Assembly: GCA_044347425.1 (NCBI GenBank)
Contig: JBIKUS010000001.1
Coordinates: forward strand, 1 to 54,566
DNA: 54,566 nt
Reading direction: 5' to 3'
From: Vampirovibrionales bacterium
Lineage (GTDB): Bacteria; Cyanobacteriota; Vampirovibrionia; Vampirovibrionales; JAJTHC01
In this document: one piece after another, positions 9,001 through 51,771 of the stretch
How the letters are laid out: each line of letters starts with the position of its first letter
Position numbering within the stretch: position 1 is the stretch's first letter
Made by a program: the position numbers and the translations under genes
The notes under the pieces: model-generated
Told to the model about the DNA's origin: nothing
The model's database searches: none
Seen by the model: the letters and a program-made list of their open reading frames with translations, nothing else

Positions 9001-9453
9001 CTAGCTCGTGGGTTGGATGGGTAAAGGTTTGAGTTCGGTAAAGCCAGTGTTAAGTGCAGGTTGAGCAAGGCTCTTGGCCTGTGGTGGTGGTGGAGACGTT
9101 GTGCTAGCCAGCTTGGCAGCGGCTTCTTTTTCTTCAAACGGTTTTTGGTTGAGAAATTGAAAGGCTTGAGCAAACACGTCTTGCGCTAGGCCAATGCCTT
9201 GGCCAGCGGTTTTGGCCATATTGCCTGCCATTTCTTGGTGCATTAGCCCTCTAAAGGTCTCTTCGGCTTCGCCGCCGCCTAAGGGGTTGTCGCTACGGTC
9301 AACGGTGGCATCCATGGCTTGTAAAAATTGTTGGAGAAAAACGGCTTCAAGCTCGGTGGCGGTTTTTTTGAGCTGTTGCGTATCACGTGAGCTAGGCTGG
9401 GCATATTCGGTGCGTATGCGTTGCGCCATGGCTTGGCTCAGCGTGTTGGGCAT
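9001..9453 (-). CDS. rod-binding protein (FlgJ N-terminal domain-like)
   Basis: LEAVFLQQFLQAMD...GGGEAEETFRGLMHQEMAGNMAKTAGQGIGLA matches the rod-binding domain pattern. No muramidase domain. Confidence 0.75.
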   Translation of the reverse strand: MPNTLSQAMAQRIRTEYAQPSSRDTQQLKKTATELEAVFLQQFLQAMDATVDRSDNPLGGGEAEETFRGLMHQEMAGNMAKTAGQGIGLAQDVFAQAFQFLNQKPFEEKEAAAKLASTTSPPPPQAKSLAQPALNTGFTELKPLPIQPTS

Positions 9454-9581
9454 AATTGGGTTGGCTCTCTAACTCGGTGAAAATGACTCTCTTCTACCCC
9501 TAGTATGGCAGAAGTGCCTCTCCCTTAGCATACGCCAAAGGGATGAACCCGTGTTGCGCTGTTGTTACAGTAAGCGACCTT

Positions 9582-9905
9582 TTACTGAAGCCCTGCTTTG
9601 GCCTTTACCCGTTGCATTTTAGCCAGTAGTGGCTCTGCCAAGGGGTCTTCGTCTCGGCGGTCGTCAATTTTTAAGCTGGTCACCACCCGTTGAACACCGC
9701 CCGTAAAGGCCGCCTCGTGCATGGCTGAAACCACCTCTAGCAACAGGCTTAATTCGCCCCGCAACGTGGTAGACATGGGGTTAAGGTGATATTCCACACT
9801 GGGGTAGCGTAACAACACCTTTTCGGCTTCGGCAATGGTGTCGCCTAAACTGGTACTGCCTGTACCTAACGGCACTAACGAAACATCAATTTTAACCACA
9901 GGCAT
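9582..9905 (-). CDS. MTH1187/YkoF-like (UPF0045) thiamine-binding family protein
   Basis: About 100 aa with VSLVPLGTGSTSLGDTIAEAEKVL and the HLNPMSTTLRGE pattern typical of this family. Confidence 0.7.
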   Translation of the reverse strand: MPVVKIDVSLVPLGTGSTSLGDTIAEAEKVLLRYPSVEYHLNPMSTTLRGELSLLLEVVSAMHEAAFTGGVQRVVTSLKIDDRRDEDPLAEPLLAKMQRVKAKAGLQ

Positions 9906-47370: not shown

Positions 47371-49128
47371 CTAGGCAGCAGCTGGCTCGGGTTCGGGCTT
47401 CACTTCTTCGGCGGGTGGAGCTTGTTCAGCAGGTGGGGCTTCGCTCGCTTCGGGGGCAGGCGTTGCTTCAGCGGCGGGGGTCTCTGCAGGAGGTGCTTCG
47501 GCCTCAGCTTTGGCTTTTTCGGCAGCAGCAGCAGCTTGCTCATTGGCAACGTCGGCTTTGGCCTGTGCTACTTCGCCTTCAACCACGGTCTCCGTCGTTT
47601 CGGCGGTATCGGTAGCACTGGCGGCTTGGGTAGCTGTGGTATCAGCGGTATCGGCTGTGCTTTTAGCTTGGTCAGCTTTAGCCTCGGCGGCTACCTCTTG
47701 CGTTGTGTCTGCGGGAGGAGGCGTGGCTTCTGTTTCTGTTGTTTCTGTCGAGGCTGCCACGGCTTCGGTAGAGGCTTCCTCATCGTCAGCCACTTCAATA
47801 AAGGTGCCATCAGTTTCTAGCGTAACCATTTGCCCACCAACGGCTACTTGGTACTTACCGTCGTCTGTGCGTTCAATCACCACGTCCTCACTATCTACGG
47901 GTGTAGGTGGTGGGGTGGGAGCAGCAGCGGCGGCATTAGCTTCGGCGGCAGCGGCCGTTGCGGCGGCAGCAGCGGCTTCAGCGGCAGCGGCAGCGGTGTT
48001 AGCACGAGCTTCGGCAGCGGCCGTTGCTGCTTTAGCGGCGGCTAAATCAGCCTCTACCTTAGACAGTCTTGCTTCAGCACTTTCAACACGTTCTTCGGTC
48101 GAAGGTTCGGCAGGCGTGTCTACTTCATCATCTGTACCCGTGGCTGGTGTAGGTGTGGTGGTGGCACCTGCATTGGTTGTATTACCAGCATCATCAGCTT
48201 CCTCGGTAGGGGCAACATCGGCCGTACCACCAGTACCATTGGCTGCACCAGCGTCATCAGCTGCGTCAGCACCATCGGTTGCCCCAGCGTCATCAGCTCC
48301 ATCGGCACCATCGGCTGCTCCAGCGTCATCAGCTCCATCGGCACCATCGGCTGCTCCAGCGTCATCAGCTCCATCAGCACTATCGGCTGCACCAGCGTCA
48401 TCAGCTGCGTCGGCACCATCGGCTGCACCAGCGTCATCAGCTCCGTCGGCACCATCGGCTGCACCAGCGTCACCTGCATTATTATTGTTGTTAGCAGCCC
48501 CCGCATTATTATTATTATTGTTGGCTCTACCAGGCGATGCCATAATAACTTGGTTGCCTAAGCCACCAGCGGCTCCTGTACCAAGCACTTGGGTACCTAA
48601 ACCGCCACCTAATTGGTTAAGGTTTAACATACCACTGTTGCCGCCGAGCATCATCAAAAAGGGCAGTAGTGGGCCAAGCATACCCAATAGTCCGCCTTGG
48701 CCACCCATGATGCCAAACATGCCGTTGGTAGTAGTACCACCAGTTAATGTGTTGCCAAAGCCAAGGCCAGTATTGCCAAGTAAGTTTCGTTCAATTTCGG
48801 CGGCACGGGTACCAAAAAAGCCCCCCGCCCCAAAACCAAAATTAGAGCCTACACCCAAGCCCAAGGGGGCATCATTAAGGGTTGTACTACCTACACCTGT
48901 GCCAAACGTACTAAATGCCTCTGGGCCAAGCGGAATGGTGGTATTAAACAGGGCTGCATTTTGCTGCACACCTAAGGGGTCAGTCGTCCCCCCTATACCC
49001 GTTGCTGGGGGCAAAAAAGCTAGCTCTTGAAAGTTGGTAGCTTGGGCGGTTGCGTTAGGTAAATTAAAGGCCTGCGCTGCTAGTGCAGGGTCAAGAGCAA
49101 ATGTGCGAAAGTCAGGAGCGAATGACAT
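47371..49128 (-). CDS. 585-aa low-complexity protein (FG/GLFG-like Gly-rich region, poly-Asn, acidic DGAD repeats, Ala-rich helix, small beta module, Pro/Ala/Glu tail)
   Basis: ATG at 49128 with AAGGTG upstream. Uninterrupted 1758-nt frame. The convergent terminator sits just past its stop. The antisense 506-aa ORF has only a TTG start. Confidence 0.6.
   Translation of the reverse strand: MSFAPDFRTFALDPALAAQAFNLPNATAQATNFQELAFLPPATGIGGTTDPLGVQQNAALFNTTIPLGPEAFSTFGTGVGSTTLNDAPLGLGVGSNFGFGAGGFFGTRAAEIERNLLGNTGLGFGNTLTGGTTTNGMFGIMGGQGGLLGMLGPLLPFLMMLGGNSGMLNLNQLGGGLGTQVLGTGAAGGLGNQVIMASPGRANNNNNNAGAANNNNNAGDAGAADGADGADDAGAADGADAADDAGAADSADGADDAGAADGADGADDAGAADGADGADDAGATDGADAADDAGAANGTGGTADVAPTEEADDAGNTTNAGATTTPTPATGTDDEVDTPAEPSTEERVESAEARLSKVEADLAAAKAATAAAEARANTAAAAAEAAAAAATAAAAEANAAAAAPTPPPTPVDSEDVVIERTDDGKYQVAVGGQMVTLETDGTFIEVADDEEASTEAVAASTETTETEATPPPADTTQEVAAEAKADQAKSTADTADTTATQAASATDTAETTETVVEGEVAQAKADVANEQAAAAAEKAKAEAEAPPAETPAAEATPAPEASEAPPAEQAPPAEEVKPEPEPAAA
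48241..48472. repeat. 36-bp tandem repeat, about 6.4 copies (coding; 12-aa unit DGADGADDAGAA on the minus strand)
   Basis: Units at 48241, 48277, 48313, 48349, 48385 and 48421, plus a partial unit. 1-4 substitutions per unit. Confidence 0.95.
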
Positions 49129-49450
49129 AGGATAGTGTCACCTTAAGAGATGGGGTAAAGTGCTACACAGGCAAGTTAAGCTAAAGCGTGCAACTTATGT
49201 TGACAGGGCAGAGAGTTGAGTGTTTTGAGAAAAGCGAGAGAGGGAAGGAGGTATTGCGTTAGGTAGACAGAGTAAGCTTTGAAGCAACCTACACCACTTA
49301 CACTTAAGAGTATAGCACAACGACTTATTTTTTAAATATACTTATTATATTATTTACACTCTGTAACAACAGCAAAACAACGCTAAAGGAGTCTTGATAG
49401 TAAGATTGCCCACCGTCTCCACCCACCCCTGTAGTATAGCAGCACAAGGG

Positions 49451-49479
49451 TTGTCATCTTTTTTAAACCATGGTATAGT
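49451..49479 (+). promoter_or_regulatory. sigma70-type promoter candidate for the ilvB leader
   Basis: TTGTCA (49451-56), a 17-nt spacer, then TGgTATAGT (extended -10, hexamer at 49474-79). Confidence 0.55.
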
Positions 49480-49567
49480 GCAAAAACTAAGGTTAGGTGT
49501 TGTTTTGACACCAACCTAAGTACTTGCGTATTTTTTAACCTTGTTATCTGCCCACAGAGACGATACC

Positions 49568-49675
49568 ATGACACGCCAAGCCTTTTTAACCACACCTGTC
49601 GTTTTGCAGCTTGCCCCTGTGTCTTTTGTCGTCCTTAGCCTCGTCCTTATTGGCCTTGCCGGTGGGGTTAGCTAA
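49568..49675 (+). CDS. 35-aa Val/Leu-rich leader peptide candidate (MTRQAFLTTPVVLQLAPVSFVVLSLVLIGLAGGVS)
   Basis: 15 of 35 residues are Val/Leu/Ile. Lies between the promoter and terminator upstream of ilvB. Its 3' end carries the antiterminator arm. Confidence 0.55.
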   Translation: MTRQAFLTTPVVLQLAPVSFVVLSLVLIGLAGGVS

Positions 49676-49705
49676 GCTGCAGTAACGCAACATTAAGCTC
49701 AACAC

Positions 49706-49738
49706 TCACCGGCTAGCACAAGCGGCCGGTGATTTTTT
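49706..49738 (+). terminator. rho-independent terminator (attenuator) upstream of ilvB
   Basis: TCACCGGC-N11-GCCGGTGA, an 8-bp stem followed by TTTTTT (49733-38), 170 nt upstream of the ilvB ATG. Confidence 0.8.
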
Positions 49739-49908
49739 GTTTAAACACTTACAGTTATTTTTTGGAGATTGACCCCTTTATGCTGTCACAACGCCCCAAG
49801 CTCACCCAGTTTGTTACTAGCCCCCAGGTACATGGTGTACCTAGCCGAGGCGGTTGCATCATGCAGCCACAACCCACAGCATAACCCGTTTTGAAAGGAT
49901 TTTTCGCC

Positions 49909-51771
49909 ATGATGATGATGGCCATCGCCACTCGCCCCAACGCCCAAACCAACCGTATTTCACCAGCTTATGCTGCCCCTGCCGCTTTGGCGCAACCCGC
50001 CAACATGGCTAACCCCATGGCCAGCCCTCCTCAAGCCCAAGCACTTTGCGCCCACGACATGTCTGGGGCGAAAATTTTTTGCCAAGCTTTGGTTGATTCT
50101 GGTGTGACAGACGTGTTTGGCTACCCTGGTGGCGTTATCTTGCCCATCTATGACGCTTTGGCCGACTATCCACAGTTAAAACACTACCTTGTTCGCCATG
50201 AACAAGGCGCCACCCACATGGCCGAAGGCTACGCCAAAAGTACAGGCAAGCCAGGCGTGGTACTGGTGACCAGTGGGCCTGGGGCTACCAACATCGTCAC
50301 AGGCGTGGCCAATGCCTACTACGATTCTACCCCGCTGGTGGTGTTTACTGGCAACGTACCTACCCACATGTTAGGTAATGATGCCTTTCAAGAAGCGGAT
50401 ATTTTAAGCATTACCCGCGCCTGCACCAAACACAACATTATTGTGCGCGACGTTAAAGACCTATGCCGTAGTATTAAAGAAGCCTTCCACGTGGCGACTA
50501 CTGGCCGCCCTGGCCCTGTTGTGGTGGATTTACCCAAAGACGTGATTACGGCCATGGCCACCTACAATTTTGACGCTACTGAGTGCAACTTACCCGCCTA
50601 TAACCCCGCCCCTGCCCCTGTGCAACCCGCCGATATTGACGAATTACTGGCCTTGTTGGCCGAAGCCAAGCAACCCGTTATTTTAGCAGGCGGTGGCGTG
50701 GTCAACAGCGGAGCTAACGCTGAATTGCTGGCCTTTGCCGAACACTTTAATCTGCCCGTGGCCTCGTCGTTAATGGGGTTGGGGGGCTTTCCCTCTCGGC
50801 ACCCCTTATTTATGGGCTTTGCGGGTATGCACGGTATGTACTGGGCTAACATTGCTATTGCCAAGGCTGATTTAGTGGTAGTGATTGGCAACCGCCTGAA
50901 CGAACGCCAAACAGGCAAGGCCGACCGCTTTGCTCGTAACGCCAAAATAGTGCATATTGACTTAGACCCCAGTAACTTGGGCAAAAACGTGCCAGCCTTC
51001 TTACCCATAGCGGGCGACGTTAAAGAGATTCTGCAACACACCCTGTCGCAAGCCGACGTTTGCCCCCACGATTTTACCGACGCTTTGGCCAGCCGAGCTG
51101 CATGGTTGGCTCAAATTGAGGCCATGAAACGCCGTAAGCCCATGCCTATCCACAGTGGGCAAGGGTGCATGACCCCTCAATACGCCATTGAGCGTGTGAT
51201 GGCAGCCCTGCCCGCTGACAACGCTTTTGTCACCACCGAAGTAGGCCAACACCAAATGTGGACGGCGCAACGCTTCAACATTGACCGCCCCCGTAGCTTC
51301 GTCACCAGTGGCGGGTTGGGGACAATGGGCTTTGGCTTCCCCGCTGCTATTGGCATACAAGTGGCTCACCCCACCGCTACCGTGGTGGATATTGCGGGCG
51401 ATGGTAGCTTCCAGATGACCTTGCAAGAGCTGGCCACCGCTGCCGACTACAAACTGCCTGTTAAAGTGGTGATTATCAACAACAGCCGCTTGGGTATGAT
51501 TAGGCAATGGCAAGATAAAATGTACGGCCGTCAAAGCGAAGCTACCATGGGCAGCCCCGACTATGTACTGCTGGCCAAGGCCTTTGGGGGCGAGGGGTTT
51601 GTAGTAGAGCGTGCCGAAGATGCCGATGCCGTTTTAGCCCAAGCCATGGCCATAACAGATAGACCCGTGATTGTGGATATGCGTGTGGCCGAAACTTGCG
51701 ACGTGTACCCATGGGTACCTGCAGGCAGTGGCAACGAAGAGATGCTAAACGACACACCCCCCACCCCCTAG
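49909..51771 (+). CDS. ilvB: acetolactate synthase (acetohydroxyacid synthase) large subunit
   Basis: GAKIFCQALVDSGVTDVFGYPGGVILPIYDAL and the TPP motif GDGSFQMTLQELAT...NN. ATG at 49909 follows AAAGGA. Confidence 0.95.
   Translation: MMMMAIATRPNAQTNRISPAYAAPAALAQPANMANPMASPPQAQALCAHDMSGAKIFCQALVDSGVTDVFGYPGGVILPIYDALADYPQLKHYLVRHEQGATHMAEGYAKSTGKPGVVLVTSGPGATNIVTGVANAYYDSTPLVVFTGNVPTHMLGNDAFQEADILSITRACTKHNIIVRDVKDLCRSIKEAFHVATTGRPGPVVVDLPKDVITAMATYNFDATECNLPAYNPAPAPVQPADIDELLALLAEAKQPVILAGGGVVNSGANAELLAFAEHFNLPVASSLMGLGGFPSRHPLFMGFAGMHGMYWANIAIAKADLVVVIGNRLNERQTGKADRFARNAKIVHIDLDPSNLGKNVPAFLPIAGDVKEILQHTLSQADVCPHDFTDALASRAAWLAQIEAMKRRKPMPIHSGQGCMTPQYAIERVMAALPADNAFVTTEVGQHQMWTAQRFNIDRPRSFVTSGGLGTMGFGFPAAIGIQVAHPTATVVDIAGDGSFQMTLQELATAADYKLPVKVVIINNSRLGMIRQWQDKMYGRQSEATMGSPDYVLLAKAFGGEGFVVERAEDADAVLAQAMAITDRPVIVDMRVAETCDVYPWVPAGSGNEEMLNDTPPTP

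Follow-up and report, generated by a model that had tools for sequence, protein, structure and literature searches.

In the current study, the leader region of ilvB, the gene for the large subunit of acetolactate synthase, was analysed in a 54,566-nucleotide stretch of the genome of a Vampirovibrionales bacterium (phylum Cyanobacteriota; assembly GCA_044347425.1, contig JBIKUS010000001.1, positions 1 to 54,566; hereafter the window). Based on this analysis we consider it highly probable that the locus is a classical ribosome-mediated (leader-peptide) transcription attenuator, which sets ilvB expression by the supply of charged isoleucine (Ile)-, leucine (Leu)- and valine (Val)-transfer RNA (tRNA). 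An initial annotation, made from the sequence alone, had read the locus as a leader-peptide attenuator like those of Escherichia coli ilvBN and ilvGMEDA, and this reading is supported here by ribosome-mask modelling, by conservation and by compensatory base changes. While the anatomy, energetics, conservation, covariation and linkage to ilvB of the element were observed directly, we infer that translation of the leader and tRNA charging are what actually drives the switch. The element comprises the following features, which include a short leader open reading frame (ORF) and a set of alternative RNA helices.

49451–49479, forward strand: sigma-70-type promoter, with a -35 element TTGTCA (49451–49456), a 17-nucleotide (nt) spacer and an extended -10 element TGgTATAGT (49471–49479).
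49486–49521, forward strand: 5'-end stem-loop of the leader transcript (CUAAGGUUAGGUGUUG...ACACCAACCUAAG), seen in both the minimum free energy and the centroid folds.
49568–49675, forward strand: leader ORF of 35 codons plus TAA (ATG at 49568, TAA at 49673–49675), encoding MTRQAFLTTPVVLQLAPVSFVVLSLVLIGLAGGVS.
49605–49612, forward strand: 5' arm of the outer helix P0 (UGCAGCUU), in leader codons 13–15.
49619–49657, forward strand: regulatory codon run, codons 18–30 (V S F V V L S L V L I G L), assessed by ribosome-mask partition function.
49645–49654, forward strand: region 1 (CCUUAUUGGC), the 5' arm of the 1:2 anti-antiterminator hairpin, inside the last regulatory codons L-I-G.
49658–49676, forward strand: region 2, consisting of the core GCCGGUGGG(G), which extends to 49667, and GUUAGCUAAG; it pairs with region 1 or region 3.
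49674–49681, forward strand: 3' arm of P0 (AAGCUGCA), overlapping the stop codon.
49687–49713, forward strand: region 3, the antiterminator 3' strand, the 3' part of which overlaps the terminator 5' arm.
49706–49714 with 49724–49732, forward strand: intrinsic terminator of 9 base pairs (bp; -18.4 kcal/mol), consisting of TCACCGGCT, a 9-nt loop and GGCCGGTGA, followed by T6 at 49733–49738.

The promoter assigned by the initial annotation to 49451–49479 is present, matching the consensus at 10 of 12 positions in addition to the TG, and was the top-scoring of four promoter-like sites identified by a consensus scan of 48900–50200, as against 1.1 ± 1.0 in shuffled sequence. The transcript start is predicted at approximately 49486. 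Relatives possess an extended -10 element (TGTTATAAT, TGTTAAAAT, TGTTACAAT) at the equivalent site upstream of their leaders, while the promoter of L229, a metagenomic relative whose ilvB is 72% identical, reads TTGACA-N16-TATTAT. Hairpins were also noted by eye in several relatives at the same relative position as the 5' stem-loop, which may stabilise the 5' end of the transcript. The leader ORF was found as annotated, with seven Val, seven Leu and one Ile; nine of these 15 residues fall within codons 18–30, and the peptide occurs in a single copy in the genome. The 281-nt leader folds with a z-score of -4.5 relative to dinucleotide shuffles, none of 200 of which folded as well.

The pairing of CACCGGC with GCCGGTG (49725–49731) ahead of T6, as previously described, was located within the 9-bp terminator hairpin; a simple terminator scan with a loop limit of 8 nt had missed the hairpin at 49706–49738 for the sole reason that its loop is 9 nt. 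The core antiterminator pairing of GCCGGTGGG (49658–49666) with CTCACCGGC (49705–49713), 9 bp including one G-U, likewise lies where the initial annotation had placed it, although the partner string given there carried one C too many, the preceding base being an A. The full antiterminator extends further, as 19 consecutive nt (49658–49676) pair with 49687–49713, region 3 contributing AGCUCAAC (49696–49703, opposite GUUAGCU) and CUCACCGGC (49705–49713, opposite GCCGGUGGG). The fold of 49656–49715 has an energy of -26.3 kcal/mol as against -18.4 kcal/mol for the terminator and, since the strand at 49706–49713 is common to both, the two structures are mutually exclusive. In addition, a local 1:2 hairpin is formed by CCUUAUUGGC (49645–49654) and GCCGGUGGGG (49658–49667), extended by CUUAGC:GCUAAG to -19.1 kcal/mol, so that the element presents the complete 1:2, 2:3 and 3:4 layout of a classical attenuator. 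It is enclosed by P0, a perfect helix of 8 bp which was first recognised in relatives and to which the window was then aligned by the covariance model. The 1:2 anti-antiterminator, P0 and the longer antiterminator are features absent from the initial annotation. Region 2 encodes a conserved 'AGG' peptide tail and overlaps the leader stop codon, which lies 6 nt 3' of the GCCGGUGGG core.

In the mechanism proposed here, transcription would begin approximately 80 nt 5' of the 35-codon leader ORF. Were the leader to remain untranslated, region 2 would be locked in the 1:2 hairpin, reinforced by P0, while a ribosome located at the stop codon would itself cover region 2; with region 2 unavailable, regions 3 and 4 would form the terminator and RNA polymerase would halt at T6 near 49738. 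A ribosome stalled in the Val/Leu/Ile run, with its aminoacyl (A) site at codons 18–26, would cover region 1 and the P0 5' arm and leave region 2 free to pair with region 3 in the long antiterminator (-26 versus -18 kcal/mol for the terminator), with read-through into ilvB as the predicted outcome. P0 and the 1:2 hairpin would likely serve as a pause hairpin which couples transcription to translation.

This behaviour was modelled by barring the 28 nt under a ribosome footprint from pairing, codon by codon, and calculating pairing probabilities (P) up to the end of region 4. In the absence of a ribosome, the partition function put P(1:2) at 0.99 and P(terminator) at 0.98. An A site at codons 18–26 (V S F V V L S L V), codon 23 excepted, gave P(antiterminator) of 0.51–1.00, and one at codons 27–36, the stop included, gave P(terminator) of 0.96–0.98. 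Within the model, an Ile/Leu/Val attenuator would be expected to behave in this way, and the folding thereby reproduces the switch logic previously put forward, according to which a stalled ribosome permits read-through and a ribosome at the stop favours termination.

Orthologues of ilvB with 56–68% identity are present in 34 of 41 related genomes, and a leader ORF with an Ile/Leu/Val (ILV) run was observed upstream of ilvB in most of 30 relatives (for example MNILNSVVIILVVILSGPAGGI, MNPFLSSLIIVIIVVLIGLPGG, MLFSLVSLVLIVLLGVPAGGV, MNIYLNLVLVLIILIGPAGGI and MQSPLNNIIILVIIILIGSPGG). The peptides are 21–53 codons in length, with neither length nor N-terminus conserved; a variable N-terminus is followed by a near-pure run of 8–10 I/L/V codons, a tail of the form (S/I)G-x-(A/P)GG and, a few codons on, the stop. 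In translation, region 1 (..CUC AKC GGC) and region 2 (GCC GGU GGG) give this tail, and each ORF in the relatives is followed by ACCGCCGG-loop-CCGGCGGUUUU. Where the initial annotation had looked to conservation of the small ORF and the heptamer pair, the ILV run, the terminator and the antiterminator all proved to be conserved upstream of ilvB throughout the order, with compensatory changes. Employing an RNA covariance model, the element was identified in 27 of 49 genomes of the order, with one match in the genome under study, and in all 18 genomes for which both positions are known the best match lies 120–600 nt 5' of ilvB on the same strand.

Both alternative folds are supported by covariation. 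For the OFF fold (P0, 1:2 and terminator), a 17-sequence MAFFT alignment gave 86% paired, with 12 pairs changed on both sides compared to 6.1 in shuffles (0 of 500 reaching the observed value), and in a model-based alignment of 27 sequences 90.3% of cells were paired (slid controls 30–46%), 18 of 27 pairs being changed on both sides as against 7.9 in shuffles (0/500). The ON fold, that is the two-helix antiterminator, was scored on the same 27 sequences in an alignment which had not been fitted to ON pairing, and was 85.7% paired (slid controls 22–45%). Changes on both sides were seen in 19 cells of the ON fold, the shuffles giving 7.4 (0/500); its closing pair, 103/196, occurs as GC in 18 sequences, CG in five, AU in one and UA in one. 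Considering the individual helices, all 10 pairs of P0 were changed on both sides with 84% of cells paired, the 1:2 helix was 93% paired across the 27 sequences, and the terminator helix was 95% paired with six of its eight pairs changed on both sides. In relatives, pairing reaches 96–99% in the core 2:3 helix, and six of the seven pairs of the second antiterminator helix changed on both sides. One terminator position varies between G and A, with C or U to match on the other arm, and both bases can pair with the U of region 2.

Entire arms have also been exchanged together. In L090, regions 1–4 are altered in concert (CGGG / CCCGGUGG / CCACCGGG / CCCGGUGG), while L229, whose leader reads ...VVPVVGVAIISLLLLLSVPAGGFG, has its second antiterminator helix rewritten as GAUAAACC:GGUUUAUC. 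In genus g4 (10 genomes), region 2 and both terminator arms have been replaced (GGCUCGGU / ACCGAGCC / GGCUCGGU), on account of which this genus was missed by the covariance model; the peptide tail is changed to match, to ...LLMAR (ending ...ALIILVVLLILPVLLMAR), and in several g4 members the full-length fold picks the antiterminator. In L092, of genus g8, the leader-like ORF is approximately 100 codons long and runs through the terminator 5' arm, with perfect complementarity retained between region 2 (UCCGGUGGGAA) and region 3 (UUCCCACCGGA); a frameshifted assembly or a divergent design could account for this arrangement. The possibility that CCGCCGG...CCGGCGGTTT is a generic terminator was discarded, as it had one further match in the genomes of five relatives and was otherwise confined to the ilvB leader. 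Outside the order, the covariance model gave a single match among 102 genomes of a class sample, and no match among 150 further genomes of the phylum, negatives which are weak because the model depends on sequence, and four Gastranaerophilales/Melainabacteria ilvB loci inspected by eye had short AT-rich upstream regions with no leader.

Weaker matches of the model in relatives proved to be leaders built like that of ilvB but with different codon runs, located upstream of other genes as listed below.

G038 (C9, L147): tryptophan (Trp) leader MTYFPNAINNNWRAWWHSDRPAGG... (WRAWW), upstream of a gene for 3-deoxy-D-arabino-heptulosonate 7-phosphate (DAHP) synthase (PF00793), which is followed by a putative anthranilate synthase (trpE) ORF.
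G030 (C7, L148): phenylalanine (Phe) leader MQRSFFFSGFFYGFFFNKDG... (FFFSGFFYGFFF), upstream of a DAHP synthase gene.
G026 (C12, L140): Ile leader MNTLINSIQIIIMLTAS... (IQIIIML), upstream of a gene for a pyridoxal phosphate-dependent (PALP-family) enzyme, threonine-dehydratase-like by eye.
G032 (C1, L144): leader ...SIMMICIICLP..., upstream of a gene for an S-adenosylmethionine (SAM)-hydroxide-adenosyltransferase-like (SAM-hydrolase-like) protein.
G025 (C48, L143) and G055 (C74, L146): MMM-rich leaders, upstream of uncharacterised genes.

In the Trp, Phe and Ile leaders the codon run matches the pathway of the downstream gene, a correspondence which is hard to explain except by ribosome-mediated sensing, and the comparison suggests that leader-peptide attenuation is in general use in the lineage. 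We lean, by a modest degree, towards the view that the ilvB element belongs to a lineage-wide modular attenuator family of the Vampirovibrionales, a non-photosynthetic group related to cyanobacteria, in which one scaffold (outer helix, 1:2, two-part antiterminator and terminator) carries swapped codons (I/L/V at ilvB and the PALP-family enzyme, Trp and Phe at DAHP synthase and trpE, and methionine (Met) at SAM-related genes), with a second sensing tier of V/L-rich upstream ORFs coupled to ilvB translation in many members, and which would constitute the first documented classical attenuation regulon in the Cyanobacteriota.

The regulated gene and the small ORF which precedes it downstream of the terminator (uORF2) are as follows.

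49909–51771, forward strand: ilvB, large subunit of biosynthetic acetolactate synthase (TIGR00118 at 726.5 bits, cut-off 538; three thiamine pyrophosphate-enzyme Pfam domains).
49781–49884, forward strand: uORF2, 34 codons (MLSQRPKLTQFVTSPQVHGVPSRGGCIMQPQPTA), between the terminator and ilvB.

The likely start of ilvB is ATGATGATGATG at 49909, while the conserved core begins at 50059; the relatives L083 and L084 (genus g3) share this feature, which makes a start at 49909 likely. The intervening N-terminal extension (49909–50058) is approximately 50 residues long, begins MMMM and is rich in A, P and Q, and the corresponding extensions in relatives are 20–85 residues long and lack sequence conservation. 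Since the gene after ilvB lies on the opposite strand, ilvB is monocistronic; no ilvN follows it, as the initial annotation had stated, and a search of the 97%-complete genome with TIGR00119 (small subunit) gave no match. A 90-codon ORF directly 5' of ilvC on another contig (C209:218–489) weakly resembles an IlvM-type small subunit (NF008362, E = 9e-4, below cut-off). The unusual taxonomic setting suggested earlier, that of a cyanobacterial relative, was borne out, as the nearest named acetohydroxyacid synthase (AHAS) proteins are those of Vampirovibrio sp., Vampirovibrionales and Melainabacteria; against genome and metagenome contig collections, the AHAS protein gave, among the matches listed, only approximately 50% identity. 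An exact look-up of the ilvB product of the window gave no record, and a strain of 99% identity (L230) covers the locus only from 49667 onward and is identical there, and is thus uninformative.

Elsewhere in the genome under study, no leader was seen in the upstream regions of ilvC and of a leuA-like gene. The latter (contig C70:17699–18847) matches positions 1–382 of the 494 of TIGR00973, below cut-off, and may lack the C-terminal regulatory domain or encode a citramalate/homocitrate-type synthase. In a genome-wide scan for small ORFs with a terminator downstream, the ILV-type matches apart from the ilvB leader (C49, C137 and C39) were rejected as off-frame coding repeats or RGG tails. On the minus strand of C49 (approximately 9420–9800), tandem 69-nt repeats read MAAFVVVVIIVAV(M/V)TIS in one frame, and rather than leaders these most likely represent the complementary strand of a gene for a His/Asp-rich repeat protein. 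A scan of the genome for W/F/M/H/T-type leaders was too noisy; its one attractive candidate, FFFSG on C109, was dismissed because it apparently falls in a coding sequence of the other strand, and this genome lacks a DAHP synthase like that of the relatives.

In the window, uORF2 lacks an ILV run, ends 24 nt 5' of ilvB and is probably a degenerate remnant. In many relatives (L085–L090, L095, L100, L102, L104, L109 and L110), a uORF2 of 30–76 codons has a strong Shine-Dalgarno sequence and V/L runs (for example ...LLNRVVVLLLGTPPTVV...RVVVFAL...), and in many of those its stop overlaps or abuts the ilvB start, such that uORF2 may act as a second, translational sensor of branched-chain amino acids.

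Several points weigh against attenuation by the translating ribosome at this locus. The mask model is an equilibrium calculation in which kinetics are ignored, and with codon 23 in the A site it gave P(antiterminator) of 0.06 and P(terminator) of 0.92. The ILV run of the window is broken by S, F, S and G, whereas the relatives have clean runs. In genus g3, which has the closest ilvB (68% identity), neither leader nor terminator was detected, only a promoter-like region, indicating that the element is dispensable; judged from these upstream sequences, the attenuator appears to have been lost, or never gained, in that genus. The Shine-Dalgarno sequence of the leader ORF is weak (-2.9 kcal/mol), as it is in most relatives, and a similar-looking ilvB leader of Streptomyces coelicolor was unaffected by mutation of its regulatory codons (PMC1262725). 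These last two observations would fit an RNA switch which is real and is read by a ligand (a protein, a small molecule or uncharged tRNA), the ILV ORF being incidental or a by-product of constraint on the RNA, and the C-terminal 'xGG' motif of the peptide is indeed dictated by the RNA arm GCCGGUGGG. We nonetheless regard such a ligand-read switch as improbable, since the I/L/V run 5' of region 1 is needed by no helix and yet is kept near-pure and in frame, and since in every lineage, including g4 with its different arms, the start is in frame and the stop lies a few nt past region 2. Moreover, the sibling leaders swap the run for W, F or M, those with W and F preceding DAHP synthase genes of the aromatic pathway, and no T-box or riboswitch family matched, even at E <= 10.

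The overlap of the uORF2 stop with the ilvB start in many relatives, together with the proposal that leader genes can raise translation by reinitiation (PMC4833913), raises the question of whether the element acts mainly on ilvB translation or mRNA stability, through leader translation, uORF2 coupling or the 5' hairpin, and not on termination. This appears a little less probable still, given that a G+C-rich hairpin followed by a T-run is conserved in nearly all relatives, that the covarying alternative helix overlaps exactly the terminator 5' arm, and that over 230 nt separate the leader stop from the start of ilvB, a distance too great for reinitiation. To the idea that the product of the short ORF is itself functional, as a small hydrophobic membrane peptide, with the hairpin as the terminator of the ORF and ilvB transcribed from its own promoter, we attach the least credence, and regard it as very improbable. 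The peptide is hydrophobic enough for a transmembrane segment and the approximately 170 nt between terminator and ilvB could house a promoter, but no promoter-like site was found in 49739–49890, and a match at 49891–49919 runs into the start codon of ilvB. Conservation is limited to the ILV run and the RNA-dictated tail, the runs lack the A, F, G and M typical of membrane helices, and antiterminator and terminator covary, for which there would be no need if the hairpin were a plain terminator. A stand-alone membrane peptide, considered in the initial annotation, is also at odds with the single genomic copy and with the linkage to ilvB, which the best model match in relatives always adjoins.

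Leader-peptide attenuation has been documented mainly in Proteobacteria and Actinobacteria. The E. coli ilvL and ivbL leaders are 32-codon ORFs with mixed Ile/Leu/Val or Val/Leu regulatory codons, and the ilvGMEDA and ilvBN leaders control acetolactate synthase through hairpins which exclude one another, namely a protector (1:2), an antiterminator (2:3) and a terminator (3:4). The element described here resembles these leaders in its short I/L/V-coded ORF, its three exclusive hairpins, the proximity of the stop to region 2 and its acetolactate synthase target. Unlike them, it possesses the additional P0 helix, which joins early leader codons to the stop-codon region, and an antiterminator of two helices, while its ilvB is monocistronic without ilvN and its host belongs to the Cyanobacteriota and not the Proteobacteria. 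When 49000–50300 was compared with Rfam by cmscan, the sole match at E <= 10 was a chance one to flpD, located within ilvB (15.6 bits, gathering threshold 40); as there is no Rfam sequence or covariance-model likeness, the element is an analogue of the E. coli leaders rather than a homologue. It shares with E. coli trpL the full four-region logic, in which 1:2 hides region 2 unless a ribosome is on region 1, and differs from it in amino acid specificity, although relatives in the order carry a Trp version (MTYFPNAINNNWRAWWHSDRPAGG...) upstream of DAHP synthase-trpE on the same scaffold.

In actinobacterial ilvB leaders, among them the three-hairpin attenuator of the Corynebacterium glutamicum ilvBNC operon and the leaders of Mycobacterium and Streptomyces, a short ORF with runs of I/V/L codons is reported to overlap or precede a poly-U terminator hairpin (PMC1262725, PMC11857589, PMC10272879). 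The locus in the window likewise combines an I/V/L-codon ORF with a terminator upstream of ilvB; unlike the actinobacterial leaders, in which the ORF overlaps the terminator, its ORF ends 30 nt before the terminator and a separate region 2 mediates the choice, and the actinobacterial leaders belong to a different phylum and bear no sequence relation to it. A leucine-rich attenuator peptide has also been reported in Staphylococcus aureus. For cyanobacteria, a survey published in 2016 stated that reliable data on attenuation were lacking (PMC4833913), and a literature search on Vampirovibrio or Melainabacteria together with leader-peptide attenuation yielded nothing relevant.

A covarying example from the Vampirovibrionales would extend leader-peptide attenuation to a new phylum, and would imply that transcription and translation in these bacteria are coupled tightly enough for the ribosome to steer RNA polymerase. 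The covariance model built in this study can be used in annotating these uncultured genomes. A standard regulatory subunit of the TIGR00119 type (ilvN/ilvH) normally provides feedback inhibition of acetolactate synthase. That a small-genome lineage would still sense branched-chain amino acid supply at the level of ilvB is of interest because no such ilvN/ilvH was found in this genome. Finally, the Trp, Phe and Met sibling leaders hint that attenuators may arise by re-use of one scaffold and, if the modular family is real, it would represent an unusual case of recognisable kinship between the attenuators of different operons.

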